Shown here piece by piece: positions 1-22,504 of a stretch of 28,867 bases of DNA. Position 1 is the first letter of the stretch. Every line of letters begins with the position of its first letter. Source of the stretch: a virus. Its lineage: Duplodnaviria; Heunggongvirae; Uroviricota; Caudoviricetes. The notes beneath the pieces are model-generated. The model made no database searches, was not told the origin of the DNA, and worked only from the letters and a program-made list of their open reading frames with translations. A program made the position numbers and the translations under genes. Location: IMG/VR virus record IMGVR_UViG_2660238462_000003; one strand, 5' to 3'.

Positions 1-258
1 ATGGCAATTTATTCTCTTGTTGATGAAAACGATTTGCGCACAATGAAGGACATTGATCGGTTCATTCGTGAAAAAGAGTGCATAGCACTTACCACGCTGG
101 CAAACTCAACACGCTGGAAAATGGAGCAGGCAGGTAAATTCCCGCGACGTATCAAGATCGGTGAACGTGCTGCAGGGTATCGACTTTCAGAGGTTCAGGC
201 ATGGATCCGTGGTGAGTGGCATCCTGGATGGAAACCTGGAAAAACAAAACAGCAATAA
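1..258 (+). CDS. AlpA-family winged-HTH DNA-binding protein (phage regulator / excisionase-like)
   Basis: 85 aa ORF; motif ...KFPRRIKIGERAAGYRLSEVQAWI typical of AlpA/Xis-like HTH; followed by terminator; true start could lie upstream of window or at an internal Met. Confidence 0.7.
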   Translation: MAIYSLVDENDLRTMKDIDRFIREKECIALTTLANSTRWKMEQAGKFPRRIKIGERAAGYRLSEVQAWIRGEWHPGWKPGKTKQQ

Positions 259-270
259 CCAGTAAATAAT

Positions 271-296
271 GCCCCTCATCACGAGGGGTTTTTTGT
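271..296 (+). terminator. Rho-independent terminator after alpA-like gene
   Basis: GC hairpin cccctc-atcac-gagggg (272-288) followed by T-run ttttttg. Confidence 0.55.
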
Positions 297-314
297 CTAT
301 AAGGTAAAAACGCG

Positions 315-893
315 ATGAATAAAAATATTGCCGTGACGGGCAAGGGGTACGCTCGTCCAGTGAAAAAATTCTGCGATATTCGTGATCTCGTCGTTCTGCG
401 CTTTGATAGTGTGAACGTTCGTGTGGTGTATCTGAACGGCGATCCGTGGTTTGTTGCAAAAGATGTTTGTGCTGCGCTGGAACTAACCAATTCGCGTACG
501 GCGTTGCAGATGCTTGATGATGATGAAAAGGGAGTAAATTTAACTTACACCCCAGGAGGAAATCAGAATATGAGAATTATCTCTGAGTCAGGTTTCTACA
601 AACTAATAGCCCGCAGCCGCAAAGCAACGACGCCTGGCACATTTGCTCATCGTTTCAGTAACTGGGTATTCAGAAATGTGATACCAGGTATCAGAAAAAC
701 GGGGACTTATGGTATCCCGTGGGGTGCATTACAGGATTTTTCCCGCCGTAAAGAGCAATATCAAATAAGTGCCAGCGAGAAGGGGAGGGAGCTACAGGCA
801 TGTAAGCGCAAAAAGCGTGAGCTGGAGGAAGAAGAAAAAACGCTGATACGTGAATATCAGCCTGAGTTTTACTTTGGTAACCGCATTCAGTGA
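315..893 (+). CDS. BRO-N domain protein (phage antirepressor-like) with charged coiled-coil C-terminus
   Basis: 192 aa; N-terminal ...FVAKDVCAALELTNSRTALQMLDDDEKG...SESGFYKLIARSRKA... resembles BRO-N/KilA-N family; C-terminal KRKKRELEEEEK. Confidence 0.6.
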   Translation: MNKNIAVTGKGYARPVKKFCDIRDLVVLRFDSVNVRVVYLNGDPWFVAKDVCAALELTNSRTALQMLDDDEKGVNLTYTPGGNQNMRIISESGFYKLIARSRKATTPGTFAHRFSNWVFRNVIPGIRKTGTYGIPWGALQDFSRRKEQYQISASEKGRELQACKRKKRELEEEEKTLIREYQPEFYFGNRIQ

Positions 894-902
894 CAAAACA
901 AA

Positions 903-923
903 GGCGACCGCAAAAGGGTCGCC
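903..923. terminator. Stem-loop (possible bidirectional terminator)
   Basis: ggcgacc-gcaaaag-ggtcgcc perfect 7-bp stem just after BRO-N stop; no clean T-run. Confidence 0.35.
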
Positions 924-1226
924 AGTGGGAACAAGGGAAAACAAAAGCATCACCAACAATGCCACATTTGCGGCTGGTGGGCAATGTGATCAGTCAGATT
1001 TGGTTCGTTCCAAGGTTTGCAACGAGAGCTTTTTCCTGTGCTCTTTAAGGAATTTCTCAAGAGCAAACGAACAAGGTGCGAATCTTTCTGATTCATGTTC
1101 ATGCGCTATATTTTTGCGTCGTCTCTTACGAGTTGGTGATGGTGTTTTGGTTGATTCTGTGTCGCTCATGGTGCTGTCCTGTAAAGCAATGCGCCTGCGT
1201 TCCTCAAACTATGGCGCTGATATTGG

Positions 1227-1532
1227 CTATTCATGCTCTTTGACCTTGCGTCGCTGGAGTTCTTCACGCGCGACGGTGACGAGTTGCCCGATCTCCTCGG
1301 CTGCTTTGATGCCGATTTGTTCGACCTTAGCCAGGGCATCCAGTGACGACACAAGGGGATTTTCTCCGCTGCCTTCTGCTTGGCGGCGGGCTATTTCTCC
1401 GCGCATGGCGGTTACGATAAATCCGGCATTGCTTTCACCGTCCAGCTTAACGGATTCCATCCCTTGCATAACATCTAGTGGGACTCTGACAGTTGTCAGT
1501 TGTGATTTTGCGTTTTTGTTAGCCGTTGCCAT
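1227..1532 (-). CDS. Small ribbon-helix-helix-like / DUF3950-like putative regulator (candidate island repressor)
   Basis: 101 aa; strong SD (AGGAG) 8 nt upstream; N-terminal TTVRVPLDVMQGMESVK...GFIVTAMRGEI looks like beta-strand + helix RHH; divergent from the replication operon. Confidence 0.5.
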   Translation of the reverse strand: MATANKNAKSQLTTVRVPLDVMQGMESVKLDGESNAGFIVTAMRGEIARRQAEGSGENPLVSSLDALAKVEQIGIKAAEEIGQLVTVAREELQRRKVKEHE

Positions 1533-1593
1533 TTCTGAAACTCCTAATCATCGGTGTGTTTCAGTATACACAAAAAAAGAAATACAAAAAGCC

Positions 1594-1630
1594 TTGACGT
1601 GTGTTTCATGCGCTCATAACATGAAACACA
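1594..1630. promoter_or_regulatory. Promoter-like TTGACG with overlapping perfect 10-bp inverted repeat operator
   Basis: TTGACG at 1594-1599; gtgtttcatg (1601-1610) and catgaaacac (1620-1629) are exact reverse complements separated by 9 bp; sits in the divergent region between the 1227..1532(-) gene and the 1913(+) operon. Confidence 0.4.
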
Positions 1631-1912
1631 CCGAAAGGATTGTTGAAATACAAAGAGCAACGCCCCGCAGTGCTGGGAACACATACGGGGCGTCTAACCA
1701 ACAACGTAAACTAGGAGCCGTTATGGTTGCTGTAAATCATATACCACACCTTGTACACACACAAACGGCCTTTGTGTGGCGTTTTCTGGCACTGAGTGCC
1801 GGAGAATCTCAAATCATCCACGTAACCGCCTGGACGGAACGCGAAGCGCGTAGCCGTTGCCCGTCCGGTTGTGTTGCTGTATTCGCTGCAAAAATCCGCC
1901 AGGGAGTGAGTC

Positions 1913-2098
1913 ATGCTTAAAACCTTCCGTGTATTTGCCCGAGCTGTTAACCCAATAGGCCACACAATTGGTATCGCTCAGAATGTGAAGGCTGTTAATG
2001 TTCAGACGGCTATTGCTGCGGTGAGAAGCGAATCATCAGAATATGGCTTATCACAAGTCATTATTTCAGCAGTGTATGAATTAAAAGAGGTGCATTAA
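1913..2098 (+). CDS. Hypothetical small protein (61 aa), first gene of replication operon
   Basis: SD GGGAG upstream; stop overlaps next start (TAATG). Confidence 0.4.
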   Translation: MLKTFRVFARAVNPIGHTIGIAQNVKAVNVQTAIAAVRSESSEYGLSQVIISAVYELKEVH

Positions 2099-2289
2099 TG
2101 CAGGAAATTACATTACACGAAGCCGCTGAACGTGCGCACCAGACAGAAATTATTTGCCGCCTTCTTGAGGTATACCCGAACAAAATTACAGATGCTGATA
2201 TATCCGCACTGGCGAGCCTACTGGCGCGTCTTTCGGGAAGTGTCGCTAGTTTTTTGATTGAGGAAGAAAGTAAGCTGGTGGGGGATTAA
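2098..2289 (+). CDS. Hypothetical small protein (63 aa)
   Basis: Translationally coupled in operon; no recognisable motif. Confidence 0.4.
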   Translation: MQEITLHEAAERAHQTEIICRLLEVYPNKITDADISALASLLARLSGSVASFLIEEESKLVGD

Positions 2290-2511
2290 ATGAATACAGA
2301 ACGGGAAGTCTTTTTTAAATTGTTAGCATGTGCAGAAAGTTCATTAACTTTAAATAATTCAGCAAAAGCAATATTAAATATGTGGCTTGATTGCATAAAT
2401 GACAATGAAGATGCAAATATTGCTTATGGCCTGTTGTCACTTATTGATGAATCAGCAGAAAAACTCAATGACGCAATAAATAGTGCCCTGCTATCAAATA
2501 AGTCGAGTTAA
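2290..2511 (+). CDS. Hypothetical small protein (73 aa), AT-rich codon usage
   Basis: SD GGGGGA upstream; composition markedly more AT-rich than neighbours. Confidence 0.4.
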   Translation: MNTEREVFFKLLACAESSLTLNNSAKAILNMWLDCINDNEDANIAYGLLSLIDESAEKLNDAINSALLSNKSS

Positions 2512-2528
2512 GTCGAGGAATAAATAAT

Positions 2529-2828
2529 ATGGAAATGAAAAATTCTGGCTTTATTGCCAGCGGCCCCGCTCGACCTGAATTTATGAACGGCGATATTTAC
2601 CGCGATAAATACGGCGGCACGGTAACGATTAAAGGCGTGGCAGAACGGCGCATCACTTACCGCCGTGAGGGGTATAGCTATGACTGCGTGATGCCTGTTT
2701 ATCAGTTCCGGCGTGATTTTCCCCTGGTATATGCCGCACCCCGCAGTAAGCCCATCAGCAGGGAAAAAGCGTGGGGAAATATCCAGAAAATGAAAACCAT
2801 GATTAACGGATTCAGAGGTAAAAAATGA
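2529..2828 (+). CDS. Hypothetical protein (99 aa) translationally coupled to primase
   Basis: SD AGGAA upstream; stop overlaps primase start (ATGA). Confidence 0.45.
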   Translation: MEMKNSGFIASGPARPEFMNGDIYRDKYGGTVTIKGVAERRITYRREGYSYDCVMPVYQFRRDFPLVYAAPRSKPISREKAWGNIQKMKTMINGFRGKK

Positions 2829-4579
2829 AACTGGCACCGAACGTAAAACAGCAGTCACGCGGCATAAAACACAAAGGAACAGAAGTCATTATTTTTGCGG
2901 GTAGTGATGCCTGGGCACACGCGAAACAATGGCAGGAACATGATGCGCGTATGGCCGGAGATAATGAGCCTCCTGTGTGGCTTGGGGAGCAGCAGCTATC
3001 CGAACTGGATAATCTGCAAATTGTGCCGGAAGGCCGAAAATCAGCACGCATATACAGGGCCGGATATCTTGCGCCTGTAATGATAAAGGCGATTGGTCAG
3101 AAGCTGGCGGCAGCAGGCGTACAGGATGCAAATTTTTATCCTGAGGGTATGCACGGCCAGGAGGTGCAGAACTGGCGCGAATATCTGGCCCGTGAACGCC
3201 AGAATCTTTCTGATGGTCTGGTCATTGAGCTTCCGGTAAAGCAAAAGGCGCAACTTTCGCAGATGGCGGACAGTGAGCGCGCGCAGTTGCTTGCCGATCG
3301 CTTTGATGGCGTTTGCGTACATCCTGAAAGTGAAATCGTTCACGTATGGCGCGGCGGGGTATGGTGTCCGGTCAGCACAATGGAACTTAGCCGCGAAATG
3401 GTGGCGATCTATTCAGAGCACAGGGCCACTTTCAGCAAGCGCGTAATCAATAACGCCGTGGAAGCGTTAAAAGTTATTGCCGAACCAATGGGCGAGCCGT
3501 CTGGCGATTTGCTGCCGTTCGCCAATGGTGCGCTTGACCTGAAAACGGGGGAATTTTCCCCGCACACGCCGGAGAACTGGATCACCACGCACAACGGCAT
3601 TGAGTACACGCCACCAGCACCAGGGGAGAACATCCGCGATAACGCGCCAAACTTTCATAAATGGCTTGAGCACGCAGCCGGAAAAGACCCGCGCAAGATG
3701 ATGCGTATATGTGCCGCGCTGTACATGATTATGGCGAACCGGTACGACTGGCAGATGTTTATTGAGGCCACCGGAGACGGCGGGAGCGGTAAAAGTACAT
3801 TCACACACATAGCCAGCCTTCTGGCAGGGAAACAGAACACGGTAAGCGCTGAAATGACATCGCTTGATGATGCTGGTGGACGTGCGCAGGTTGTCGGGAG
3901 TCGTCTTATCGTCCTGGCTGACCAGCCGAAATATACAGGCGAAGGAACGGGCATCAAGAAAATCACAGGCGGCGACCCCGTGGAAATTAACCCGAAATAT
4001 GAAAAGCGTTTCACGGCGGTAATCAGGGCGGTGGTGCTGGCGACCAACAACAACCCGATGATATTCACCGAACGGGCCGGAGGTGTGGCACGTCGTCGCG
4101 TGATTTTCCGTTTCGACAATATCGTCAGTGAGGCCGAAAAAGACAGGGAGCTACCGGAAAAGATTGCGGCTGAAATCCCCGTTATTATCCGCCGATTGCT
4201 GGCGAACTTTACCGACCCTGAGAAGGCACGGGCTTTACTACTGGAACAGCGTGACGGTGATGAAGCACTGGCAATAAAGCAACAGACGGATCCGGTTATT
4301 GAGTTTTGCCAGTTCCTGAATTTTCTGGAGGAAGCGCGCGGCCTGATGATGGGTGGCGGTGGTGATTCAGTGAAGTACACGACCAGGAACAGCCTTTACC
4401 GCGTCTATCTGGCGTTTATGGCATACGCGGGCAGGAGCAAACCGCTAAACGTGGCTGAGTTCAGCAAGGCCATGAAGCCAGCGGCGAAAGTTTACGGGCA
4501 TGAATATATTACGCGAAAAGTTAAGGGAGTAACGCAGACCAACGCAATTACAACAGACGATTGCGACGCGTTTTTATAA
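2825..4579 (+). CDS. P4-family / D5-type primase-helicase (satellite replication protein)
   Basis: 584 aa; Walker A GDGGSGKST and surrounding D5_N/primase-C-like architecture; followed directly by iteron array. Confidence 0.85.
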   Translation: MKLAPNVKQQSRGIKHKGTEVIIFAGSDAWAHAKQWQEHDARMAGDNEPPVWLGEQQLSELDNLQIVPEGRKSARIYRAGYLAPVMIKAIGQKLAAAGVQDANFYPEGMHGQEVQNWREYLARERQNLSDGLVIELPVKQKAQLSQMADSERAQLLADRFDGVCVHPESEIVHVWRGGVWCPVSTMELSREMVAIYSEHRATFSKRVINNAVEALKVIAEPMGEPSGDLLPFANGALDLKTGEFSPHTPENWITTHNGIEYTPPAPGENIRDNAPNFHKWLEHAAGKDPRKMMRICAALYMIMANRYDWQMFIEATGDGGSGKSTFTHIASLLAGKQNTVSAEMTSLDDAGGRAQVVGSRLIVLADQPKYTGEGTGIKKITGGDPVEINPKYEKRFTAVIRAVVLATNNNPMIFTERAGGVARRRVIFRFDNIVSEAEKDRELPEKIAAEIPVIIRRLLANFTDPEKARALLLEQRDGDEALAIKQQTDPVIEFCQFLNFLEEARGLMMGGGGDSVKYTTRNSLYRVYLAFMAYAGRSKPLNVAEFSKAMKPAAKVYGHEYITRKVKGVTQTNAITTDDCDAFL

Positions 4580-4589
4580 TTTTTTGTAA

Positions 4590-4815
4590 AAGCCATCTAC
4601 CCCATCTACCTGAACAAAATAAACGCATATTATTCAACATGATAAGTGGGTATAGGGCTAGGTAGAAGGCTAATAAAAGCTCTCTACCTCTTCTACCTGA
4701 TTTTATCAGTTTCAGGTAGCAGGGTAGACGGCAGGTAGAGGAGTCAAAAAGCTATCTACCCGCTGAAAGCCGCGCCATTACTGACATGATGAGCATTCGG
4801 GTAGATGGGTAGAGG
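4590..4815. repeat. Iteron array, putative satellite replication origin
   Basis: At least 11 copies of (A/T)CTACC / GGTAG(A/T) core in both orientations (e.g. catctaccccatctacctga, ctctacctcttctacctga, tcaggtagcagggtagacggcaggtagagg, gggtagatgggtagagg); AT-rich flank; immediately 3' of primase. Confidence 0.6.
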
Positions 4816-4864
4816 GGGGGAGGCACAACTAAAAACTTTTTAAACGAGGGGGGGGTGAAAATAA

Positions 4865-5179
4865 ATGCGCATACATAAAAATCACTTAATAAACATGCCA
4901 GCCGAAAACATGAATCAGGGGCGACAAATGACCAAAATTCGCAGAGACAGAACACAGGCAAAATATAAAGCGTTAGACATGACAGAGCTTTCCTTAAAGG
5001 TGGCAATCAAAGCGATAGACCACCACACACGGGCAGGATACGCGAAGGAACATCCCGACCTGATAAGCGCATTCATGACCACAGCAGCGGCAAACTTTGC
5101 CACGCTGACAGAACGGGAGATTGCCGAAGCGGAACAGGTGACAACCATCAATGTTAAAACCGGAGAGCAGACAGCATGA
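4865..5179 (+). CDS. Hypothetical protein (104 aa; alternative start at 4919)
   Basis: ORF with stop overlapping SSB start; purine-rich SD-like sequence upstream of both candidate starts; G8 tract immediately upstream. Confidence 0.4.
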   Translation: MRIHKNHLINMPAENMNQGRQMTKIRRDRTQAKYKALDMTELSLKVAIKAIDHHTRAGYAKEHPDLISAFMTTAAANFATLTEREIAEAEQVTTINVKTGEQTA

Positions 5180-5625
5180 CAGCACAGATAGCGGCTTACG
5201 GGCGGCTGGTGGCTGACCCGCAGTTAAAGACCACCAGCAAAGGGACACAAATGGCGATGGCGAGTATGGCGGTTCCCCTGCCGTGCAGCCAGGCAGATGA
5301 CGGAACGGCGACGATGTGGTTATCCGTCCTGGCGTTTGGCAGACAGGCCGACGCACTGGCAAAACACCACAAAGGCGAACTGGTGAGCGTGGCGGGTAAC
5401 ATGCAGGTAAGCCAGTGGACAGGCCAGAACGGCGAAACGCGGCGGGGCTGGCAGGTTATCGCAGACAGCGTAATCAGTGCGCGAACGGCGCGACCGGGCG
5501 GCAAAAAAGGCCAACAGGGGCAGGCTACTGACGAACTGAACAGAGCAAAACAACAGGCAGATCAGCAAGGAAGCCAGCCACCAGTGGGAGATAATGAGCA
5601 ATGGGGAGATGATATCCCGTTTTAA
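5176..5625 (+). CDS. Single-stranded DNA-binding protein (SSB-like, divergent)
   Basis: 149 aa; OB-fold-like N-terminus alignable to E. coli SSB, Q/G-rich linker, C-terminal acidic tail ending DDIPF. Confidence 0.75.
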   Translation: MTAQIAAYGRLVADPQLKTTSKGTQMAMASMAVPLPCSQADDGTATMWLSVLAFGRQADALAKHHKGELVSVAGNMQVSQWTGQNGETRRGWQVIADSVISARTARPGGKKGQQGQATDELNRAKQQADQQGSQPPVGDNEQWGDDIPF

Positions 5626-5642
5626 ATATTGCCAATAAAAAA

Positions 5643-5667
5643 GGCCGGAAAAAATAAATTTTCCGGC
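5643..5667 (+). terminator. Stem-loop between ssb-like and capsid genes (possible attenuator)
   Basis: ggccggaaaa-aataaa-ttttccggc inverted repeat; no T-run. Confidence 0.3.
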
Positions 5668-5841
5668 ATGCTACATAAATCCCGACCAAAGGGAGTGAAG
5701 ATATTAACACTAATTGTCCGCACTGAAGTTGTCACCCCAAAACTTTATACAACATTGCACTCGGTTGCATGTGTTCGCATGACAAATATCGGTGGTAGCA
5801 TATATCCACAATTATTTTTAATGAATGCAAAGAGGATGCGT

Positions 5842-6882
5842 ATGGTTGATTTATATTCGCCTACTCAGCTTGTACAGGTGGTTAATGCTGTAGATGTACA
5901 AAAACAACTAAATGCGTTGTTTACCAGTTTGTTTTTTACTCGCTCGGTAATGTTTGAATCGCGCGATATTATTCTTGATACAATCGACGATCCAAATATC
6001 CCAATTGCAGCGTTTTGTTCTCCTATGGTGGGTAGTAAAGTTTCACGTGACGAAGGGTACGAATCAAAAACAATTCGTCCAGGCTATATGAAGCCGAAAA
6101 GCAGCATTGATCCAAATAAGTTAGCTGTGCGCCCTGCTGGTGTATCACCTGAGCAATACAATGCTTTTGGGGCACGTAATATTAAAGTTAAACAGGCGAT
6201 TGTAAATCAGGCTAAAGCTATTCGTGCACGTATTGAATGGCTTGCTGTTCAGGCAATCACAACGGGGAAAAATATCATTGAGGGCGATGGTATTGAACGT
6301 TATGAGCTGGACTGGAATATAAAACCACAAAATATCATCACTCAGTCTGGCGGTACTGAGTGGTCAGGTAAGGATAAAGAAACTTTTGATCCAAATGATG
6401 ATATTGAGAGCTACGCAGAATTTAGTGAGGGCGTCACTAATATCATCATTATGGGTGGTAATGTATGGAAGAAATACCGTTCATTCAGAGCGATAAAAGA
6501 GGCTTTGGATACCCGTCGTGGTTCTAATTCCGAACTGGAAACGGCCCTTAAAGACCTTGGTGATTCGGTGAGTTTTAAAGGGTATATGGGCGATGTTGCG
6601 ATTGTTGTTTACAGCGGGCGTTATACCGACGAGGACGGAACAGAAAAACATTTCCTTGATCCTGATTTGATGGTGCTTGGCAATACGGCTCTTCAGGGGA
6701 TTGTCGCCTATGGCGGTATTCAGGATCCGGAGCTAATCCGAATGGGGCTGACTAAAGCCGAACTTGCACCGAAAAACTATATTGTGCCTGGTGATCCGGC
6801 TATTGAATATGTGCAGACACATTCAGCACCACAGCCAATACCGGCCCGCATCAATCGTTTTGTTACCGTTCGCATTGGCTAA
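5842..6882 (+). CDS. Major capsid protein, lambda gpE family
   Basis: Shared blocks with lambda gpE as recalled: NITQSGGTEWS, DTRRGSNSELETA, GDVAIVVYSG, MVLGNT, PGY.KPK; start chosen at ATG 5842 (SD GAGG 6 nt upstream; ORF opens at 5629); about 347 aa vs 341 for gpE. Confidence 0.85.
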   Translation: MVDLYSPTQLVQVVNAVDVQKQLNALFTSLFFTRSVMFESRDIILDTIDDPNIPIAAFCSPMVGSKVSRDEGYESKTIRPGYMKPKSSIDPNKLAVRPAGVSPEQYNAFGARNIKVKQAIVNQAKAIRARIEWLAVQAITTGKNIIEGDGIERYELDWNIKPQNIITQSGGTEWSGKDKETFDPNDDIESYAEFSEGVTNIIIMGGNVWKKYRSFRAIKEALDTRRGSNSELETALKDLGDSVSFKGYMGDVAIVVYSGRYTDEDGTEKHFLDPDLMVLGNTALQGIVAYGGIQDPELIRMGLTKAELAPKNYIVPGDPAIEYVQTHSAPQPIPARINRFVTVRIG

Positions 6883-6891
6883 GGGGGAGCA

Positions 6892-7233
6892 ATGGCTACT
6901 CATTACACTGAACTCATGGCTGGCACTGAAGCACTGGTGACTACGCTGGGGATATTTTCAGCTAATAAAGGGGTAATTCCTGCATTTACGCCACTGATGC
7001 AGGAAGATGCAACAGGTGCACTGGTGGTATGGGATGGTTCGAGCGTAGGTAAAGCGGTTTATGTTTCCGCTGTACAAATCGACACAGCGAAAAAAACACA
7101 GGCACAGGTTTATAAGACAGGTGTTTTAAATGTTGATGCTCTGAACTGGCCTGAGTCTGTAAAAGAACTGTCGGCAAAGGTTGCCGCGTTTGTTGGCTCA
7201 GGTATTTCTGTTCAGCCGCTGGCTCGTGTGTAA
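6892..7233 (+). CDS. Head decoration protein, lambda gpD family
   Basis: 113 aa; PAFTPLMQEDATGALVVWDGSSVGKAV and WPE...AFVGSGISV align with lambda gpD; strong SD AAGGGGGAG. Confidence 0.7.
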   Translation: MATHYTELMAGTEALVTTLGIFSANKGVIPAFTPLMQEDATGALVVWDGSSVGKAVYVSAVQIDTAKKTQAQVYKTGVLNVDALNWPESVKELSAKVAAFVGSGISVQPLARV

Positions 7234-7244
7234 AGGGGGATACA

Positions 7245-7628
7245 ATGCAGAATCATTACAATGACCTTAAGCCAATTGCCGAAATGATGTATCCGGATCC
7301 AGCAGTAGAGGAATTAAAGGCTATTGCTGACAAAATGCGTTTAAGTGAACGCCTTGTTGATATGAATCAGGTGATGGAACTTACTACCCTTAGCCGTCGC
7401 ACATTGCTAAACCTTGAGGCTAGTGGAGAGTTCCCGGAGCGTGTGCAGGTTACGGAAGGGCGTAAGGCCTGGTATTTAAGTGAAGTGATCGACTGGATAA
7501 ACAATATTCCTCGATCTTCTGAATATTGCCGCGTACCTGTCCCAAAAAAGCCAGATGCGGCGCTATGCCTCAAGATTGAGCGTGTACGTCGCAATGCACG
7601 GGATGGTCGCTATAAGTTGATTGGTTGA
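7245..7628 (+). CDS. AlpA-like winged-HTH DNA-binding protein (second copy) immediately upstream of cos
   Basis: 127 aa; MNQVMELTTLSRRTLLNLEASGEFPERVQV...AWYLSEVIDWI matches AlpA/Xis-like HTH; strong SD AAGGGGGA. Confidence 0.6.
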   Translation: MQNHYNDLKPIAEMMYPDPAVEELKAIADKMRLSERLVDMNQVMELTTLSRRTLLNLEASGEFPERVQVTEGRKAWYLSEVIDWINNIPRSSEYCRVPVPKKPDAALCLKIERVRRNARDGRYKLIG

Positions 7629-7650
7629 TGAAATTAGGGCCCGTTCTGGC

Positions 7651-7830
7651 TGGCGGGTCCTTTCCGGCGATCCGGTAGGCTACGGGGCGGCGACCTCGCG
7701 GGTTTTCGCTATTTATGAGCCTTTTTCGGGTGCTGGTGGTGGTTTTGTTGTTCGCTCTATCTCTATGAATAAAAAGGAAAAGATAAAGCCAATACACCAA
7801 CCTGAAACATTACTTAAGTGGGGATATTGA
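7651..7830 (+). other. Lambda-type cos site (cosQ - cosN - cosB)
   Basis: 7685-7696 GGGCGGCGACCT equals the lambda cohesive end; following CGCGGGTTTTCGCTATTTATGA matches the lambda left end; preceding GGGTCCTTTCCGGCGATCCGGTAGGCTACG closely matches the lambda right end (cosQ); downstream cosB region diverges. Confidence 0.8.
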
Positions 7831-8300
7831 TGAAATCGCACCTGATGAACAAAAAAAACATGGCGCAAAGCTGCCGTGTAAGTGCGACAGCGTTCGACAA
7901 GTGGGGAGTGACTCCCGTTGAACGTAAAGGCCGCGAGGCGTTTTATGATGTTGCCAGCGTAATAGACAATCGGGTTAGCAATGCAATTAACCAGATTACA
8001 GACGACAAAGGCGAGATTGATGATGATGAACTCCTACGAGTCAGGATCAGATTGCTGACAGCACAGGCAGAGGCGCAGGAGCTTAAAAACGAGCGCGAAC
8101 GCGGCGACGTTATTGATACAGCGTTTTGTATATACGTGCTTTCAAAATTGGCGAGTCAGATTTCTTCAATCATGGACAGCCTGCCGCTTGCCATGACAAG
8201 GAAGTTTCCCGACATGAAGCCGTCTATGCTGGATGGACTGAAAAAGAAGTTATCAGAGCCTGTAACGCATGCGCAAAACTTGACGAAAACATACCGCTGA
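7830..8300 (+). CDS. Terminase small subunit, lambda Nu1 family (in-frame part; C-terminal domain continues in -1 frame to 8371)
   Basis: RLLTAQAEAQELKNERERGDVIDTAFCIYVLSKLASQISSIMDSLPLAMTRKFPDMK aligns with lambda Nu1; SD GGGGA 5 nt before ATG 7830; -1 frame 8246-8371 encodes EVIRACNACAKLDENIPLMLSDYLMETAG matching the Nu1 C-terminus. Confidence 0.8.
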   Translation: MKSHLMNKKNMAQSCRVSATAFDKWGVTPVERKGREAFYDVASVIDNRVSNAINQITDDKGEIDDDELLRVRIRLLTAQAEAQELKNERERGDVIDTAFCIYVLSKLASQISSIMDSLPLAMTRKFPDMKPSMLDGLKKKLSEPVTHAQNLTKTYR

Positions 8301-8382
8301 TGCTGTCCGATTATCTGATGGAAACTGCCGGAAACGTACCGGATAAGTTGCAGCCGAATAAAGATAAGTAACGTAGTACGCT

Positions 8383-8664
8383 ATGACTGAATCCGAAATA
8401 CTGCGATTAATCCGCCGTGCTTGTGGAATCAGCAAGCAGCATGACGAACAGGCCACGCAGCCGGACAGCGTGACCGCAGATAATTATGTGCGTGTAGTGG
8501 CTGAGGTGATGCGCCGTGACGGTATTGAGCTTAACGGCGTGGATATGCGCAACATACGAACAAGAGTCCTTGAGTTGCTGGCATATCGTCGCCGTTCTCA
8601 ACAACGGAGGGAGAGCGCGAAAAATACTTACCAGTGGAAGAAGCCGGAACGATTGCGGCGGTAA
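8383..8664 (+). CDS. Hypothetical basic protein (93 aa)
   Basis: ORF directly after terS; Arg-rich C-terminus; weak SD; no recognisable family. Confidence 0.35.
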   Translation: MTESEILRLIRRACGISKQHDEQATQPDSVTADNYVRVVAEVMRRDGIELNGVDMRNIRTRVLELLAYRRRSQQRRESAKNTYQWKKPERLRR

Positions 8665-8679
8665 CTTGCTGATATTCCC

Positions 8680-9060
8680 GATAACGCAAAATTGCGCTGG
8701 CTGACTTGTTGCATTGCAAAAAGTTAAGCAGGAAGGCACGGCCTGTAAGATGGGATGCAGTAAGTAGTTCAAGGCTACCTTGTGCTGGCACGCACAGTTA
8801 AGCCGTCGGTGCTGGATATCCCCCACTGGGGGAAAAGCTGGCTACATCCCTCACATCTGAGGACTGATAACGCGACATTGCGCTGGCTGGCAAAGTGCAA
8901 AATTGCACGATGGCCTAACCCATTGATTATTTCGAAAACCTGCAATGCAGGAAATCGGGGAAGTAAGCCTAAGCTATTGATTGTTTCGAAAACCCCCATT
9001 GGGGGATGTCGGGAAAGTAAGACTAACCCATTGATTCTTCCACAATCCTCAATTTGAGGA
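8680..9060. repeat. Non-coding region of short palindromes and degenerate direct repeats
   Basis: Direct repeat gataacgc(a/g)a(a/c)attgcgctggctg at 8680 and 8866; palindromes cgcaaaattgcg, ttgcattgcaa, cccccactggggg, gtgcaaaattgcac, cctgcaatgcagg, cccccattggggg, cctcaatttgagg; three roughly 55-bp units each starting (c/t)cattgatt(n)tt(t/c)c. Confidence 0.5.
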
Positions 9061-9479
9061 GGCCGGAACGTCTACATAGCTGCATCGCCGTAATGATGAT
9101 TCAGCCCACCAGCCAAATCAGCACAGCAACGACAGAATAGCCCGACACAGAAAAACCACGAATATGGGGTTTTTGTTATGACATGGTCATGATGACCACT
9201 CATACAAAACAGGTAAAGCCCACCAGCCTGATTAAAGGTTAACCGGAAAAAAGCCAGGTATCCAATCTCGATATGGGGATCCCTATATCGACATTAACGC
9301 CCACTAAAACTGTGCATATATGCATAGAAAAAGCATCCACCAGCTTTATGACGGATGCCGCTCATCTTATAAATAATCGTGTATTGCAGTGTGTATTGCG
9401 ACTCCTTTAAACGATAGGTCTGAGCATTCGTAATGTACTGTTTTTAAATTTTATTTTTTCCTGTCTTTTCATAAAGGCG

Positions 9480-9707
9480 ATGTATGCCGCCACCATTGAG
9501 AGTGAGCTGGATACGCAGTCAGCGATGGATTTTATTCTGGGCGCGAACAGTCAGGAGCAGCGGGAAAGGCTGACCGGCTGGATTGGTGAAATTGCCGCGT
9601 ATTACGCCGCAGCGCCGGTCCGGCTGGGAGGCGCAAAAGTACCGCACCTGATGCCGGGGGACTCACTGAACCTGCAGACGGCTCAGGACACGGATAACGG
9701 CTACTCC
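9480..9707 (+). CDS. Hypothetical protein, 3' end lost in scaffold gap
   Basis: ORF MYAATIESELDTQSAMDFILG... running into the N-run; unrecognised. Confidence 0.25.
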
Positions 9708-9717
9708 NNNNNNNNNN
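9708..9717. other. Assembly/scaffold gap (10 N)
   Basis: Run of 10 n characters. Confidence 0.95.
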
Positions 9718-9921
9718 CGCAGCTTTACGCTTGTCTTCTCTTATTTTGAAGTACAGATTCGTCAGGTAAGTCAGAAAGCCCAGAACCAGACTTCCCAGCA
9801 CACCAATAGCAGCCCACTGTGATGGACTGACCTGATCAAGCCACTGTAAAAACCAGTAGCCAGCACTGCCTGCGGAGGTGCCGTAGGCAATGCCCGTTGT
9901 TAACTTGTCCATGGATTTCAT
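9718..9921 (-). CDS. Holin, phage 21 S21 (pinholin)-like; C-terminus truncated by gap
   Basis: [63 protein letters not shown]... matches S21/EssD-type holin; strong SD GGAGGTGAGG. Confidence 0.8.
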
Positions 9922-10294
9922 AGCCTCACCTCCGCAAATAACGGATGGTGTACACGGTTCGGAACGAAGAGGGAAAGGTATAGAAGTTACATTAGCGTAA
10001 GGCCTGAACATCTATTCAAAAAGAAAAACGCCAGCGATTATTCTGGCGTAGCTGAAAGCATCATAAAATTATCAAATACGAAAATTACAAAATCATTAAA
10101 ACGCATCACGTTACATCATGTGTTTTTCTAAAAAAATCTTGATGAATATTTGTGGGGAGGAACACCAAAATATCTTCTGAAAACACTTACAAAATATGAC
10201 GTATTTTCATAACCGCATATCTCAGCAACTTTCCCAACAGAATATAAATTGTAGCTTAATAACCTTTCCGCCATCACCATTCGCTCTTCAAGAA

Positions 10295-10680
10295 TTAATT
10301 TTCGTGGATCTCAACTGAGCGTGAGAAGCAGATTGTTTTACGAGCCAACCGCTTAATACGGGTGCGTAGCGTCAGATTATTACGCTCAATGCGTTGGGTG
10401 AATATTTTGCCGGTCAGATGCTTATTCTTCGGCACCTCCCGGCCATAGCTGCCCCAGTCATCGCTGGTCAGCATGCCGATATTGAAGGGTGTAAGCAGTG
10501 CCAGTAGCTCCCGGCACGTTTGATCGGTTCGGGGACCAAAAGTGTAGGCCAGTACACCGCCTGTTTTGGTGTTGTACGCGTACCAGAGTCAGTGTTGCCG
10601 GGCTTTACTGCCAACGTAGCTCCATTGCTCATCAAGCTCGCAGATAAGCGCCACATCAGCATGGGCAACAGGCGAAGAAG
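10295..10680 (-). pseudogene. insB: IS1 insB-like, internal TGA stop and short C-terminus
   Basis: Minus-strand translation LICELDEQWSYVGSKARQH*LWYAYN...MLTSDDWGSYGREVPK...RIERNNLTLRTRIKRLARKTICFSRSVEIHEN resembles InsB; stop falls where IS1 InsB has Trp. Confidence 0.6.
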
Positions 10681-10953
10681 TTATTCGCTTTGGCGCGAGT
10701 TTTTTAAAGTCCGGATGACGGTGTTAATACCAATTTTCAGTGTCCTGGCGGTATCGCGAACCCCGGCACCATTAAAGGCCATTTCAGTTATCCGCTCTTT
10801 CATACCCGGCTTACGTGCTTGATAAGTATAAGTGAGCTGAAACACACGGTGGCAGTCACGGCAGCGAAATCTGTCACGGCCTTTAGGGTTCTGACCATGG
10901 CGGTAAACCTGAGCTGACTGACAACGGGGACAATGAATATTAACTCTGGCCAT
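10681..10953 (-). CDS. insA: IS1 InsA-like zinc-finger/HTH protein
   Basis: 90 aa; CPRCQS...CRDCHRVFQ zinc finger and HTH GINTVIRTLKN typical of IS1 InsA (divergent from K-12 IS1). Confidence 0.8.
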   Translation of the reverse strand: MARVNIHCPRCQSAQVYRHGQNPKGRDRFRCRDCHRVFQLTYTYQARKPGMKERITEMAFNGAGVRDTARTLKIGINTVIRTLKNSRQSE

Positions 10954-11432
10954 GAGATAACCTCAAAAGCCCGTATTATACATCAGACTCAACTAATTAG
11001 AGGCATCACCATAGAACATATGTATGGCATATTATCCACCTGATATCATTGGGGTTACACCAGGTAAGTATAGGTGGGTAATCAATATTCGCCAGTTCAA
11101 CAATAAGGAAAATCTCATTGCATCACAACTATAAAAGCATGTGTTTAACTCGCAAAAAATCATTAAACTAATCTGTTATATTATAATAGCTGCGTGCAAT
11201 AATAATATTATATGCTCTTAATATTCGCTTGAAATATCTTTATATAAAAACAGATTGAATAAAATATTTTGGGGCTGGTATATTTACCAACATTAAATTG
11301 CATCTCAATATTTTCTTCAGCGTGAACAGGATTTTTATACAAACTGACACTATGGGTATCATAGTGTAGTTTTTACGATTGTAAATATCCTGCATGCAGG
11401 AACTCATCACTTTCAGATGATATCGCATACAG

Positions 11433-12392
11433 TTAATTCACCATCAGTCTTAAAGCCAGTTCTTCCGGATAGGGATCGAAGTAATTCTGTGTAAGCAAGT
11501 AATCATTAGGATACTCACCCAGATAATGCTTCAGCAGAGTCAACGGCGCAAGAAGAGGCAATGTGCCAGAACGATAGTTAAGTATAACCTCGCTCAACTC
11601 TTTACGCTGGCGTGTACTTAAGTAGTTACTAAAATACCCCTGTATATGCATCAGCACATTCGTGTGATTTTTACGTGATGCAGGTTTTATGAGAATCGCC
11701 ATCAGCTTATCACGATACACCTCAAAGAATGATTCAAGGTCCGCCCACTCGTGTATTGCAGCCACAAATGGTCCCATATCTTTATAGCCTGCCTGACTAT
11801 GCGCCAACAACTGAAGCTTATAACGACTATGAAAAGCTAATAACTCTCTTCTTGATAATTTCTCCTTGTAAAGGTGATTGAGCTCATGCAAAGCAAAAAC
11901 TCTTTCAACAAAATTCTCACGAAGCACTGGATCATGTAATCGCCCATCCTCTTCAACCGGTAGCCAAGAAAACTTTTCCATCAAAGTGCTCGTAAATAGT
12001 CCCACTCCATCTTTACGACCTCGATTACCATTTTCATCATAGACACGCACGCGCTCCATGCCACAGCTGGGAGATTTAGCACAAACCACAAACCCCGATA
12101 CATCCTTTAATTTGTCCATATAAGAACGACTAAACTCTGTCATTCTCTCTGTCACATCCTCATTCTGGTCGTGGCTGAAACACATCCGTATATTTCCTTG
12201 CGTCGAGCGCACAAGACGTAGAGCAGGACGCGGAACTGGCAGCCCTATAGCCATTTCCGGACATACTGGTCTGAATGTTACCCATTCCACTAATTTGTCC
12301 ATTAAAAAGTCAGCTCTTTTGTGACCACCATCAAAACGAACAGCAGAACCGGCCAAACAACCGCTGATTCCAATCACAGGTTTTTTTATCAT
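11433..12392 (-). CDS. DUF523/DUF1722 (YbgA-like) family protein
   Basis: 319 aa; strong SD GGGGGAGGA; N-terminal Cys-containing DUF523-like region plus C-terminal DUF1722-like region (from memory of family features). Confidence 0.55.
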   Translation of the reverse strand: MIKKPVIGISGCLAGSAVRFDGGHKRADFLMDKLVEWVTFRPVCPEMAIGLPVPRPALRLVRSTQGNIRMCFSHDQNEDVTERMTEFSRSYMDKLKDVSGFVVCAKSPSCGMERVRVYDENGNRGRKDGVGLFTSTLMEKFSWLPVEEDGRLHDPVLRENFVERVFALHELNHLYKEKLSRRELLAFHSRYKLQLLAHSQAGYKDMGPFVAAIHEWADLESFFEVYRDKLMAILIKPASRKNHTNVLMHIQGYFSNYLSTRQRKELSEVILNYRSGTLPLLAPLTLLKHYLGEYPNDYLLTQNYFDPYPEELALRLMVN

Positions 12393-12584
12393 ATCCTCCC
12401 CCTTGACTAATTCATTAACAGATAAACTGTGTAGTGCACGGAATAAATTGCCTTTCTGGCGTCATCACTGACAATTTTTCTGTTATGGACTATTCCTAAT
12501 ATAGTATAAAAGTTCTTTAAGTGATTGGTCGTAATCATCTATCTTTCATACTTACCCTCAACTATCAAAAGTACAGGATTTATT

Positions 12585-13109
12585 ATGAAGTTATGGCCTG
12601 TGTTGACTGGCATTGCACTCTCTTTCACTCTTATAGCATGTAAGGCCCCGACACCACCTAAAGGTGTGCAGCCGATTACAAATTTTGACGCCAACCGCTA
12701 TCTCGGAAAATGGTATGAAATAGCTCGCCTCGAGAACCGGTTCGAACGTGGTCTGGAACAGGTCAGCGCTACTTATGGAAAACGGAACGACGGAGGGATT
12801 CGTGTACTTAACCGTGGATACGATCCAACGAAAAATAAATGGAGCGAGAGCGAAGGTAAAGCATACTTTACTGGAGATACTAAAACTGCAGCGTTGAAGG
12901 TTTCGTTTTTTGGCCCCTTCTATGGTGGCTATAATGTAATCAAACTGGATGATGAGTATAAGTATGCTCTTGTCAGTGGTCCGAACAGAGAATACCTATG
13001 GATTCTGGCAAGGACCCCAACTATTCCAGATAAAGTAAAAGCAGACTATGTGCGAACCGCTCAAAAGCTGGGATTCAATGTCAATGAATTATTATGGGTT
13101 AAACAATAA
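12585..13109 (+). CDS. blc: Outer membrane lipoprotein Blc (bacterial lipocalin)
   Basis: Lipobox LIAC; NFDANRYLGKWYEIARLENRFERGLE...KVSFFGPFYGGYNVI...YLWILARTPTI closely matches E. coli Blc; SD AGGA 6 nt upstream. Confidence 0.85.
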   Translation: MKLWPVLTGIALSFTLIACKAPTPPKGVQPITNFDANRYLGKWYEIARLENRFERGLEQVSATYGKRNDGGIRVLNRGYDPTKNKWSESEGKAYFTGDTKTAALKVSFFGPFYGGYNVIKLDDEYKYALVSGPNREYLWILARTPTIPDKVKADYVRTAQKLGFNVNELLWVKQ

Positions 13110-13136
13110 AATCCCTACCCGAAATGATACTTATTA

Positions 13137-13165
13137 GAAAAAAAACCAGCCTTTGGGGAGGCTGG
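13137..13165 (-). terminator. Rho-independent terminator downstream of Q (tR'-like)
   Basis: On minus strand ccagcctccccaaaggctgg hairpin followed by T8. Confidence 0.5.
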
Positions 13166-13265
13166 CTAAATCAGGAAACAAGCTGTTATATGATAATAAC
13201 TACGTTGCGATTCCAACATTTAAAATGTTAGACTAATGACAATCAGACAGCAACTTTTCTTTTAA

Positions 13266-13643
13266 TTATTTCGAACAATCAGCATCCATCTCCAATCGGA
13301 GATCCAACACCATCAGCATGCCCTCCACTACGCCCTCAGCTTTCTGGAGCATCCTGCCAACCCAACAATCAGATCGCCCATGCTTACGTGCAAGCGCCAT
13401 AAAAGTCATGCCGCCGACATAATAGTCCACCAATAAATCATGCAAATCGCTGTTGTTTTTTTTCAGGCGAGCCATACATCCACAAATGATCATCGCGTCA
13501 TCGTCACAGCATTGCGGGCGAGATTTGACTTTTGAAGAAATTAACCCCTTAAAACCGGCAGCAATGGACGACCAGGTCACATCTTCATGATTATTAGCCG
13601 CCCACGCTCCCCAACGCTCAAGAACCATCTGAATATCACGCAT
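13266..13643 (-). CDS. quuD: Late-gene antiterminator Q (DLP12 QuuD-like)
   Basis: [31 protein letters not shown]...[16 protein letters not shown] matches QuuD/Q82-family; ORF opens at 13658 but start chosen at 13643. Confidence 0.8.
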
Positions 13644-13728
13644 CAACTTACTCCACAAAAATCAGACCAGAACGCCAATTACAAGCAAAAATCAACAAAA
13701 CAGTATTAGTTGATTGTTATCTCTGACT

Positions 13729-13869
13729 TCATACTCCTGCTCCTGTCAGGGTTTTGGCGTAATTCTTCAGTATTCGGTAATCGGTCAAAACAGAACCGGG
13801 GAAACGATATAAGCGCAGACGCCCCCAGCGGTGGCGAAGACGTTCTGCCATATAAAACTCAAACATCAT
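13729..13869 (-). CDS. ylcG: YlcG-like small protein (46 aa)
   Basis: Minus-strand [49 protein letters not shown] between rusA and Q; not in supplied ORF track (under size cut-off). Confidence 0.45.
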
Positions 13870-14228
13870 TCATTCCCCATTTCGGTGATGGTCAGTTCCA
13901 GCCTCCCACCTTTGGTAACAGGCATCTTCACAACGCGGTAATCAACGACCTGAGCATCATCCAGCCAGAAACCTGCTTTAGTGAGTGCGTCAAAAGCGGC
14001 TTTTTGCAGATTATCCAGGTCACGGCGACGGCGATCCGGCATGTGGCACTCAATGCGGATTTTCACAGGCATAGCCAGGCCGATATCCAGCATTGCGTTT
14101 TTAATGATTCGGGCGACGTTATCGCGGTATGCCTGCCCCTCTGCGCTGACGTGCGTGCGCCCGCGATTATGGCGGTAATAGCGATTATTGCTCGGAGGCC
14201 AGGGTAATGTGATGCTGTAGGTATTCAC
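13866..14228 (-). CDS. rusA: Holliday junction resolvase RusA
   Basis: 120 aa [41 protein letters not shown]... matches E. coli RusA as recalled. Confidence 0.9.
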
Positions 14229-14515
14229 GCCTTAATAACCCCCTCTTTCAGCCAGATAACCTGTGTTCTCGCCATACCTTCCAGCGCGCATTCTTTTGCA
14301 TATGCAGCATCGACAAAATGTGTGCGGCGGTCGATTTCGTCGTGGCAGGCAGAACATGCAATGGTGGCAATCAGGTCTGGCGGTTTGGTACCGGTGCCGC
14401 ACAATCCAGTCAGCCGGATATGTGCCAGTACAGACGTTTCAGGGTTGCCATTACATACGCCAGGGATTCTTACCTGGCATTCCCGACTACGCGCTGCTTT
14501 TCTCAAATCAGCCAT
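14225..14515 (-). CDS. ybcO: YbcO-like (DUF1364) nin-region protein
   Basis: [40 protein letters not shown]...[11 protein letters not shown]; start at 14515 with SD AGGAGGAA. Confidence 0.75.
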
Positions 14516-14678
14516 GATTCCTCCTTGCTGCCAGTCGCAACCATTTTTTATCAACCAGGCTGGCGGTATATCCGAGCAGTGTTGGTATTTCGGAAGGCTT
14601 CAGCTCCGGTTTACGCTTACGACGATCTGGTACTCTGTAGATGTGTCCGTTCATGACACGAATAAGCGGTGTAGCCAT
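14508..14678 (-). CDS. ninE: NinE-family protein (56 aa)
   Basis: Minus-strand [59 protein letters not shown]; start overlaps ybcN stop (TAATG); under ORF-track size cut-off. Confidence 0.5.
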   Translation of the reverse strand: MATPLIRVMNGHIYRVPDRRKRKPELKPSEIPTLLGYTASLVDKKWLRLAARRNHG

Positions 14679-15133
14679 TACGCCTCCTGCTTGTCGCGGA
14701 GCAGCTGGAACTCGCAGCTCTGCGGAATAGTCAGGTGGCAGCCAATATTCACCGCCCAGGCTTCAACCTTACACAGGAAGACATACATCTCTCCGGTATC
14801 AAGATCGGAGGTATGGCGTAACGACTGGATAGTGGTGATATCACCGGTTACGACATCAACCAGGTCTTTGGTTTCATAACCGAGATATGTGTGTTTGAGA
14901 GCATCTTTTACCCAAGCTGGAGTGGCGAACGTTTTACCCTTGCTGATGAGGTATTCACTGATTTCGCTGTACCACATGTGGCTGAGTGCATTCTGGGAAA
15001 GACTGCGTCTCTCGCGCCACGGTTTAAGCACCATGCGAAAGCATTTGCCGTCCTCCAGATAAGGCTGGATCTGCCGACCGATAGCGGTGAAGTTACCGCG
15101 ATGCAATTTGATACCATCTTGTGGGAGGTTCAC
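14678..15133 (-). CDS. ybcN: YbcN-like nin-region protein
   Basis: 151 aa ORF resembling DLP12 YbcN; position upstream of ninE-ybcO-rusA. Confidence 0.75.
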
Positions 15134-15408
15134 GCTTCACCTCCGCAGAGGTCAAACGTTGGATGCAAGATATCGCAGGTGCATTTCTGCATCTGTGACT
15201 GGTTGAAAGGTGTTCTGATTGTCGTTTGCACTTTGAGTCCCCTCAAAGCGCAGAAGTCACCGGAGTTGTTCAGGCTCCGATGACATGATTATGGCGAGTT
15301 GATTATGATGAATCAATAGGTTCTTATGTCAAATGAACACTAGATCCAAAGGAGGGTAACAATTATCATAGCCAATGAGATTAATCTCATTTTTAATAAG
15401 GAAATTTC

Positions 15409-16827: not shown

Positions 16828-16835
16828 TAAATTTC

Positions 16836-16861
16836 AATAGCACTCACAAATGAGTGCTATT
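16836..16861. terminator. Hairpin between convergent moron genes
   Basis: aatagcactca-caaa-tgagtgctatt perfect 11-bp stem. Confidence 0.4.
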
Positions 16862-16878
16862 GTTGCCACTGAATTACT

Positions 16879-17133
16879 CTATTTAAATTCAACTTTTATC
16901 CCTTTGTTTAGCAGGGCATCAGAAACTGCCTTTTTTGTAACATTTATCCCTGCAAGCAATGCTTTATGCATTGGTCCCTTAAAAATTTCTACTTCTTCTT
17001 CAGTGAGTTTAGGCAATGTAATATAAATAACATCTTTCATCTGCTTGTTTTTATAGCATGAGCTTCTTGTGTGCTTACAATCGATATTTTCTTTATTTCC
17101 CAAAACATCATCCCCTTTATAATTCAGTTCCAC
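16879..17133 (-). CDS. Hypothetical small protein (up to 84 aa; non-ATG start likely, or 53 aa from internal ATG), AT-rich
   Basis: ORF convergent with the 472-aa gene; first codon at 17133 is GTG; weak SD. Confidence 0.3.
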   Translation of the reverse strand: MELNYKGDDVLGNKENIDCKHTRSSCYKNKQMKDVIYITLPKLTEEEVEIFKGPMHKALLAGINVTKKAVSDALLNKGIKVEFK

Positions 17134-17197
17134 ACATCAATTATTTAGTTATCACGAATGTCGTAAAACTAAAATTAGTAACAATAATTGCTCATAC

Positions 17198-17485
17198 CTA
17201 CTCTCTTCCATATAAAGCCAACACCCGCTTCATCGCGGCACTTTGACGACACTCCTTAAAAATCAGATTCGTGCTCACCTTTCCTTCCCGTTCTTCTCTG
17301 GTAGCGAACCGGTAATACACCGTTCGCCAGACCTTACCATCAACGACCAGGATTCCTGACCGCGCCATTTTAGCCGCAGCCTGATTTATGCTGGTTACGG
17401 TTGCGCCTGTTACCGCGGCAACGTCCTGCGCACAGAAGTTCTTATGAGTCCCCAGGTAATGAATAATTGCCTCTTTGCCCGTCAT
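17198..17485 (-). CDS. ren: Ren protein
   Basis: MTGKEAIIHYLGTH...VTSINQAAAKMAR...GKVWRTVYYRFATREEREGK... matches lambda Ren as recalled; immediately downstream of P. Confidence 0.8.
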   Translation of the reverse strand: MTGKEAIIHYLGTHKNFCAQDVAAVTGATVTSINQAAAKMARSGILVVDGKVWRTVYYRFATREEREGKVSTNLIFKECRQSAAMKRVLALYGRE

Positions 17486-19109: not shown

Positions 19110-19195
19110 AATTCCTCCCGCAATGAGTGTGTTACGATTTGCACCTGAAAGTCGGTTCTGTTCCCGCAGACCGACTTTCGCCATTTCTGAACCTG

Positions 19196-19735: not shown

Positions 19736-19804
19736 AATTGACTCCTTTAGTTTGAATTGACTGTTAAGTTGATTGCTTATTGTTAAAGAGCGTGAAATGG
19801 AAAT

Positions 19805-20035: not shown

Positions 20036-20139
20036 AACAACCTCCGTGGTTAATCCGAATAAAGATTAAAACTATGGTTGTTTTTAGTCAACAACCATTT
20101 TCGTTTGATGAAATAAAACCTTGGTTGTACATTTGATCT
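20036..20139. promoter_or_regulatory. Immunity-region operators and divergent promoters (OR / pR / pRM-like)
   Basis: Inverted repeat actatggttgtt / aacaaccat (20070-20100) plus half-site ccttggttgtac between cro-like and cI. Confidence 0.6.
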
Positions 20140-21439: not shown

Positions 21440-21447
21440 TAATCATA

Positions 21448-22499: not shown

Positions 22500-22504
22500 A
22501 ACGG

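Follow-up and report, generated by a model that had tools for sequence, protein, structure and literature searches.

[quoted passage not shown] The reading frame, ssb, stands in a row of satellite genes. The features of the locus are listed here, with coordinates in the window unless another locus is named.

1-258, plus strand: alpA-type regulator/excisionase; its start codon opens the window.
2529-2828, plus strand: DUF4222 gene, conserved immediately 5' of pri in such islands.
2825-4579, plus strand: pri, a D5_N/DUF5906/Pox_D5 primase-helicase (replication initiator), 98% identical to EcCICFT073 Pri.
4596-4813, no strand assigned: putative satellite replication origin, iterons between pri and orf83.
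4928-5179, plus strand: orf83, encoding a hypothetical protein of 83 aa; its stop codon overlaps the start of ssb (translational coupling); annotated in NZ_AP045067.
5176-5625, plus strand: ssb, a 149-aa satellite-encoded SSB (ORF, HMM matches, AF2 model with Foldseek, RefSeq identity).
Within the SSB, residues ~1-103: OB domain; residues 104-140: disordered Gln/charged linker; then the acidic tip E-Q-W-G-D-D-I-P-F.
5842-6882, plus strand: lambda-E-like major capsid protein homologue, a satellite late gene (NZ_AP045067 annotation and Pfam scan).
6892-7233, plus strand: gpD-like head decoration protein, a satellite late gene (NZ_AP045067 annotation and Pfam scan).
7245-7628: second AlpA-family HTH gene (phrog_2790, 'excisionase and transcriptional regulator'), in the late region between the decoration gene and terS.
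7830-8372, plus strand: Nu1-like small terminase (terS), frameshifted here.
9472-9707, plus strand: lambdoid portal gene, C-terminal fragment only, on the right flank of the island and cut off by a run of N.
L001, 7129-7962 and 18873-19655: the portal gene parts around the island.

An element in E. coli JNE23-011 (NZ_AP045067) matched the first 9.7 kb of the window at 99.9% identity. The gene order annotated there begins with a tyrosine integrase, an AlpA-type HTH protein, BRO-N, a YlcI-like gene (on the minus strand), an Icd-like gene and small ORFs, continues with DUF4222, a DNA primase family protein, a hypothetical protein, SSB, major capsid and head decoration, and ends with an HTH regulator, the small terminase and a hypothetical protein. 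The integrase was seen in this copy, just upstream of the DNA that the window covers. A Pfam scan of the window agreed (AlpA, Bro-N, DUF4222, D5_N with DUF5906 and Pox_D5, Phage_cap_E, HDPD, a second AlpA-like match and Phage_Nu1), and all annotated island genes except one (1227-1532) were on the plus strand. The island has the rightward int-alpA-...-pri-ori organization of a PICI, with iterons 3' of pri. In NZ_AP045067 it splits a lambdoid portal gene, with the N-terminal part 5' of int and the C-terminal part downstream, so that it lies within, and is co-oriented with, a lambdoid late gene; the left junction is outside the window. We conclude that the island is an EcCICFT073-type Gram-negative PICI in the helper-embedded configuration of PMC10111431, a study that places HE-PICI sites in lambda genes A, B, C and E. 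Gene order, the NZ_AP045067 copy and synteny with EcCICFT073 together place ssb on a phage satellite, which bears out the description of the gene as island-encoded. An exact-match search for attL/attR returned only an 11-nt repeat, away from the portal break, and left the att core undefined. Rfam at gathering thresholds gave no structured RNA in window positions 1-10000.

To the right of the island, positions 9708-9717 are 10 N and represent a scaffold gap. The lambdoid region at 9718-28867 is therefore a separate contig, with adjacency and orientation to the island not established; it carries lambdoid lysis, Q, O/P, cI and Red-region genes, including bet/exo/gam. The same run of N led us to reject a prophage rearrangement at this junction. 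Neither the satellite DNA nor the lambdoid DNA of the window held another SSB gene. In terS, one A was lost from an A6 run (8240-8244) relative to the otherwise identical NZ_AP045067 copy, which could be a homopolymer sequencing error or a genuine loss of satellite packaging.

Between pri and orf83, the iteron TCTACC(C/T) occurred 10 times within the 218 bp at 4596-4813, with copies in both orientations; YCTACCY matched 13 times across the 28.9-kb window, and 10 of those matches fell in this interval. Origins of Gram-negative PICIs were mapped by Fillol-Salom et al. [quoted passage not shown] The next gene, orf83, matched phrog_1231 (function unknown) and no Pfam family. It was 81% identical to its EcCICFT073 counterpart, cf-PICIs have an 85-aa ORF at the same position, and in E. 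coli PICIs and cf-PICIs alike the gene is conserved as the partner that precedes ssb; its named matches were from Escherichia and Shigella. The AlphaFold2 (AF2) model of the orf83 product was a helical hairpin with no significant match among PDB folds. The protein is a possible accessory factor of the SSB or of the primase.

The ssb reading frame is intact, running on the plus strand from ATG at 5176 to TAA at 5623-5625 and encoding 149 aa that end in EQWGDDIPF. A GGAG Shine-Dalgarno sequence lies ~11 nt 5' of the start codon, and the ATG shares an ATGA overlap with the orf83 stop codon. Directly after the ssb stop, at 5644-5667, there is a 9-bp GC-rich hairpin with a T-run on the minus strand only; it is terminator-like and would stop antisense transcription from the capsid side. 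A second, weaker terminator-like hairpin lies within ssb at 5510-5532.

The product scored 58.7 bits against Pfam PF00436 (SSB; gathering cut-off 26, E 6.4e-16, SSB residues 5-99) and 67.6 bits against NCBIfam TIGR00621 (cut-off 53.95), which it matched end to end; PHROG 44, 'single strand DNA binding protein', matched at 138 bits, and SSBs were the only matches in a sequence search of the PDB. The ORF at 5176-5625 is a genuine member of the bacterial-type SSB family, and the reading of the earlier note held in the HMM search that it had proposed, above the curated cut-offs of both PF00436 and TIGR00621. The protein is 100% identical to RefSeq WP_057688280.1, annotated as an SSB in NZ_AP045067. 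The finding is thus already known, the exact protein being in RefSeq as 'single-stranded DNA-binding protein', and as a sequence finding it adds nothing new, since the protein had been annotated, and its place in the replication module described, before.

We modeled the protein with AlphaFold2, using a family alignment of 110 sequences as input. The OB core was predicted with strands at 2-11, 16-19, 25-36, 44-54, 69-82 and 88-101 and a helix at 55-62, at block-mean pLDDT values of 77-95. From residue 104 onward the model was disordered (pLDDT <60 over 104-149), with a low-confidence helix at 115-129. The best 50 Foldseek matches in the PDB were all bacterial SSBs, with a best E of 2e-10; S. 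aureus SsbA (7ym1_B) was matched at E 2e-10 with a TM of 0.80 on the target. An OB fold missing from structure prediction would have told against the SSB reading, and both the AF2 model and Foldseek returned that fold.

BLASTP gave 26% identity to E. coli SSB over the OB domain. Residues W48, F54 and W81 aligned with W54, F60 and W88 of E. coli SSB, and each was at least 90% conserved across the family alignment. The position of the stacking residue W40 is occupied by Gln39, so that 3 of the 4 stacking aromatics are present. His55, at the tetramer interface of E. coli SSB, is replaced by Leu49, which is invariant in the family. We infer that the satellite protein would bind ssDNA and form tetramers.

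The note had singled out an exact DDIPF tail used to recruit partner proteins. DDIPF is present in the window SSB, but the exact sequence is atypical for the family. D145 and F149 were invariant in the family alignment, I147 and P148 were at least 90% conserved, and position 146 varied among N, G, D, E and S. Tails in the 120 closest cluster representatives were GDNIPF in 47, GDGIPF in 17, GDDIPF in 13 and EDEIPF in 8. Relatives in other Enterobacterales genera ended in ...YDDDF, ...DDETPF, ...DDEAPF, ...NDEPEF or ...DDDIPF, and more distant relatives had mostly acidic-[ILV]-P-F ends. Exact DDIPF is thus a minority state of a conserved D-x-I-P-F core and no special retention, and the idea of a special mimicry is weakened because the second Asp of the tip is variable and relatives in other Enterobacterales islands end in YDDDF, DDETPF or NDEPEF. 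The satellite tip has 3 acidic residues, compared with 4 in E. coli SSB. No correlation was apparent between tip sequence and primase family (D5_N versus DUF927) among the loci compared.

The claim that the linker is very different from that of bacterial SSB was borne out against E. coli SSB. The satellite linker has 37 residues (104-140) rather than 56, with 16% Gly versus 30%, 8% Pro versus 16%, and 24% charged residues (many Lys, Arg, Asp and Glu) versus 5%; Gln content is similar in the two. The linker motif GQATDAL(N/R)RA(K/Q)Q is conserved in many alleles and does not occur in the tails of CFT073 and cf-PICIs. The window SSB differs from the family consensus by the substitutions Q90R and A120E.

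The closest experimentally characterized system is EcCICFT073 (NC_004431, 1377930-1388654), the model Gram-negative PICI, with which the window island shares both homology and synteny. The two have the same gene order, with DUF4222, pri, ori, a small ORF, ssb and the capsid and decoration genes in common; PMC6092414 identifies c1499 and c1500 as the EcCICFT073 equivalents of the last two. In EcCICFT073 the SSB (WP_000126698.1, 136 aa, NC_004431 1384538-1384948) occupies the same position and is followed by PerC, capsid and decoration. The OB domains of the two SSBs align without gaps and both proteins end in GDDIPF, while the linker of the window SSB is 13 residues longer and carries the motif GQATDELNRAKQQ. 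The SSB of capsid-forming PICIs (cf-PICIs; cluster P0062, 136 aa) has an OB domain nearly identical to that of the window and shares the pri/85-aa ORF/ssb arrangement, but its tail and linker are of the CFT073 type, and downstream it has HK97-type capsid, protease, portal and TerS/TerL genes where the window island has lambda E/D-like genes. Chromosomal E. coli SSB (PDB 1EQQ/1EYG) has the OB fold, the disordered linker and terminal DDIPF in common with the satellite protein, in which the loop joining strands 2 and 3 is shorter by 5 residues. The SSB of HK620 and the phage SSBs of PHROG 44 are likewise host-distant SSBs of mobile elements with an acidic P-F C-terminus that recruits partners; mobile-element SSBs that are distant from the host yet acidic-tipped are a known kind. 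In PMC10111431, primase, SSB, DUF5906 and the mapped origins form the 'Replication' category of Gram-negative PICI genes. Searches of the literature turned up no experimental work on a PICI SSB, and the protein goes unmentioned in both the EcCICFT073 packaging paper and the cf-PICI preprint.

Between the window and EcCICFT073, Pri was 98% identical and SSB 66%, with dS of ~0.97 for ssb and 0.15 for pri, and nucleotide identity fell from ~97% in pri to 50-75% in the ori and ssb core. The ssb dS lies far above that of pri, which argues for allele exchange by recombination. Across 19 allele pairs, dN/dS in the OB domain was 0.06-0.23 (Nei-Gojobori; two further pairs had saturated dS), and by this measure ssb is under purifying selection. 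We rejected diversifying selection as the source of the low SSB identity to CFT073: a dN/dS of ~0.14 with a dS of ~1 indicates allele replacement and mosaicism instead. Mosaicism within the gene was assessed by comparing window positions 5176-5625 with L003 7001-7411 and L013 10539-10949. The window OB domain nearly equaled the cf-PICI allele (pN 0.017) and the tail was a different module; recombination therefore also takes place within ssb, between the OB domain and the tail.

A search of 5.8 billion proteins with the satellite SSB gave 720 matches at E<1e-5. Among the 120 matches listed, every source-supplied name was SSB, and most came from Escherichia, with some from Shigella, Salmonella and Citrobacter; the identical sequence was present on 33 contigs, named 'single-stranded DNA-binding protein'. 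In a library of representatives at 50% identity there were 341 clusters at E<1e-10 and 7360 at E<1e-3. Megablast with window positions 4600-5700 (part of the ori, orf83 and ssb) found a match in 1666 of 5426 complete E. coli genomes.

We examined gene context in 30 loci, drawn from one-genome-per-species contigs of about 20 Enterobacterales genera. A primase of the D5_N or DUF927 type lay directly 5' of ssb on the same strand in 24 of them. In cf-PICIs, cluster P0062 begins with int, alpA, DUF4222, D5_N primase, the 85-aa ORF, SSB and PerC, and a packaging module follows (HK97 capsid, protease, portal, connectors, HNH, TerS and TerL). Cluster P0101, in Salmonella islands, has a DUF927 primase-helicase, then SSB, then ProQ. 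The order of primase then ssb therefore holds whatever the primase family or packaging module. The Salmonella DUF927-primase islands also contain a second SSB-family ORF of 114 aa, ~3 kb downstream of the first (L008-L011, 10117-10461). A 62%-identical SSB lies beside a ProQ-like gene, as in enterobacterial islands, on the 5.7-kb contig JAHEOE010000100.1 (L040), binned as 'Candidatus Paceibacterota' and probably mis-binned.

In the contexts examined, members of this SSB subfamily lay in integrative satellites and islands; two of these records had been filed as plasmids. No INPHARED phage record had a relative of the satellite SSB above 32% identity, and on that ground we rejected a phage origin of ssb. 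Plasmid-database matches at 60-87% identity raised a plasmid origin, which we rejected as well, since the two records checked were not true plasmid replicons; both consist of island-like DNA with int, alpA or an HTH gene, primase and ssb. CP088587.1 (L044), a 32.6-kb E. coli 'plasmid', is a cf-PICI flanked by chromosomal pntB and mdtJI and is probably a mis-assigned chromosomal fragment. NZ_CP033626.1 (L045), a 22.9-kb circular Klebsiella 'plasmid', contains no genes other than those of satellite type (int, HTH, ant, DUF4222, primase-helicase, hypothetical, SSB, PerC and tape measure), and one block of sequence recurs at its two ends; the record resembles a satellite, episomal or concatemeric, that was assembled as a plasmid. 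An SSB of the conjugative-plasmid (F) type, which would closely resemble chromosomal E. coli SSB and lie in a plasmid leading region, was likewise set aside, given the 26% identity to E. coli SSB and the island-like nature of the plasmid records.

Family membership, fold, conservation of the tip, gene linkage and purifying selection are established for this gene, and we think it probable that the protein is a replicon-dedicated SSB of the PICI replication module that recruits host replisome partners. The DDDIPF hexapeptide of SSB is a docking site for chi, DnaG, PriA and others. PMC3045619, PMC3632105 and PMC5872125 describe this for chi and DnaG. After induction, the satellite primase-helicase would open the iteron origin ~360 bp 5' of ssb, and the satellite SSB, co-translated with the orf83 protein, would coat the exposed ssDNA. 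Its disordered tail, through the D-x-I-P-F end, would then dock onto host readers of the SSB tip (Pol III chi, DnaG, PriA and others), and host replisome components could thereby reach the satellite replicon while satellite and helper amplify and host SSB is possibly limiting. Both the identity of the partners and the benefit to satellite replication are deduced from these features. The suggestion in the note that the protein could support the satellite's own replication fits the location of ssb inside the replication module. EcCICFT073 pri-ori suffices to maintain a temperature-sensitive plasmid (PMC6092414; the cloned fragment may or may not carry ssb), and as pri-ori alone does so, the SSB is probably accessory rather than essential. 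Against a replicon SSB stand the missing W40 equivalent, the change of His55 to Leu and the short, Gly-poor linker.

Those same linker features are among the points that favor an interfering or decoy SSB, one that competes with host SSB, titrates the host proteins that bind its tip or occupies helper ssDNA, with the effect that replication or Red recombination of the lambdoid helper is damped and the satellite favored. Published chimeras indicate that stimulation of PriA requires the SSB tip and a Gly-rich linker together, and they suggest that C-terminal domains with a short, Gly-poor linker fail to stimulate it; the satellite tip may therefore bind some host partners without activating them. 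The tip is host-like, perturbation of host ssDNA metabolism has been proposed in the literature for an SSB-like phage protein that ends in FDDDIPF, and PICIs are known for interference with their helpers. Competition with the host or helper for SSB-interacting proteins, as raised in the note, is plausible as a conjecture. We nevertheless regard a decoy as unlikely: in the loci examined ssb was always linked to pri-ori and never to the late or interference region, the known interference function that the literature describes for EcCICFT073 concerns packaging, and tip sequences are diverse (DNIPF, DGIPF, YDDDF, DDETPF) and do not follow the host tip, which is invariant. Also unlikely is a selective hijacking of the host SSB interactome, in which the host-like tip, carried on a short, charged, Gly-poor linker, would bind chi, PriA, ExoI, RecQ and possibly lambda Bet with altered outcomes. 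Were that so, replication would be channeled to the PICI origin, helper or host DNA transactions would be depressed, and the interchangeable tail modules among alleles would tune partner capture. At stake is whether satellites need an SSB of their own to out-replicate the helper, and whether the SSB tip is a route into the host replisome.

A replicon-dedicated SSB also has to be weighed against roles outside replication. The protein might partner a recombination or annealing protein of the satellite or helper, with the tip recruiting an annealase, for example to form concatemers for cos packaging. HK620 SSB stimulates Sak4 through its last six residues (NDYPPF), the adjacent scaffold contig has lambdoid bet/exo/gam, and EcCICFT073 is packaged as phage-length concatemers; however, the Pfam scan and PHROG revealed no recognizable annealase in the island, and the only constant neighbors of ssb are the primase and, in E. 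coli, orf83, a protein with no identifiable fold relative. We consider such a partnership improbable. A protective or anti-defense function, in which the SSB shields satellite ssDNA from host nucleases or modulates a defense that senses SSB or ssDNA, seems to us quite improbable, although SSB-like proteins of mobile elements have been reported to trigger or modulate reverse-transcriptase defense (DRT10). PADLOC had no match for the SSB, orf83, BRO-N, the YlcI-like ORF or orf93, which also led us to reject a role as a defense system for these five ORFs; the OB domain has a dN/dS of ~0.1 with no sign of diversifying selection, which argues against an arms-race target, and the linkage of ssb is to the replicon. 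The constant primase linkage, the lack of an annealase or a PADLOC match and the low dN/dS make both of these roles less likely. Finally, with terS frameshifted next to it in the window, ssb might be thought a decaying or non-functional passenger. This is highly improbable: the reading frame is intact, the identical protein recurs on those 33 contigs, purifying selection is strong, and the 1.1-kb query (part of the ori, orf83 and ssb) is matched in about a third of complete E. coli genomes.
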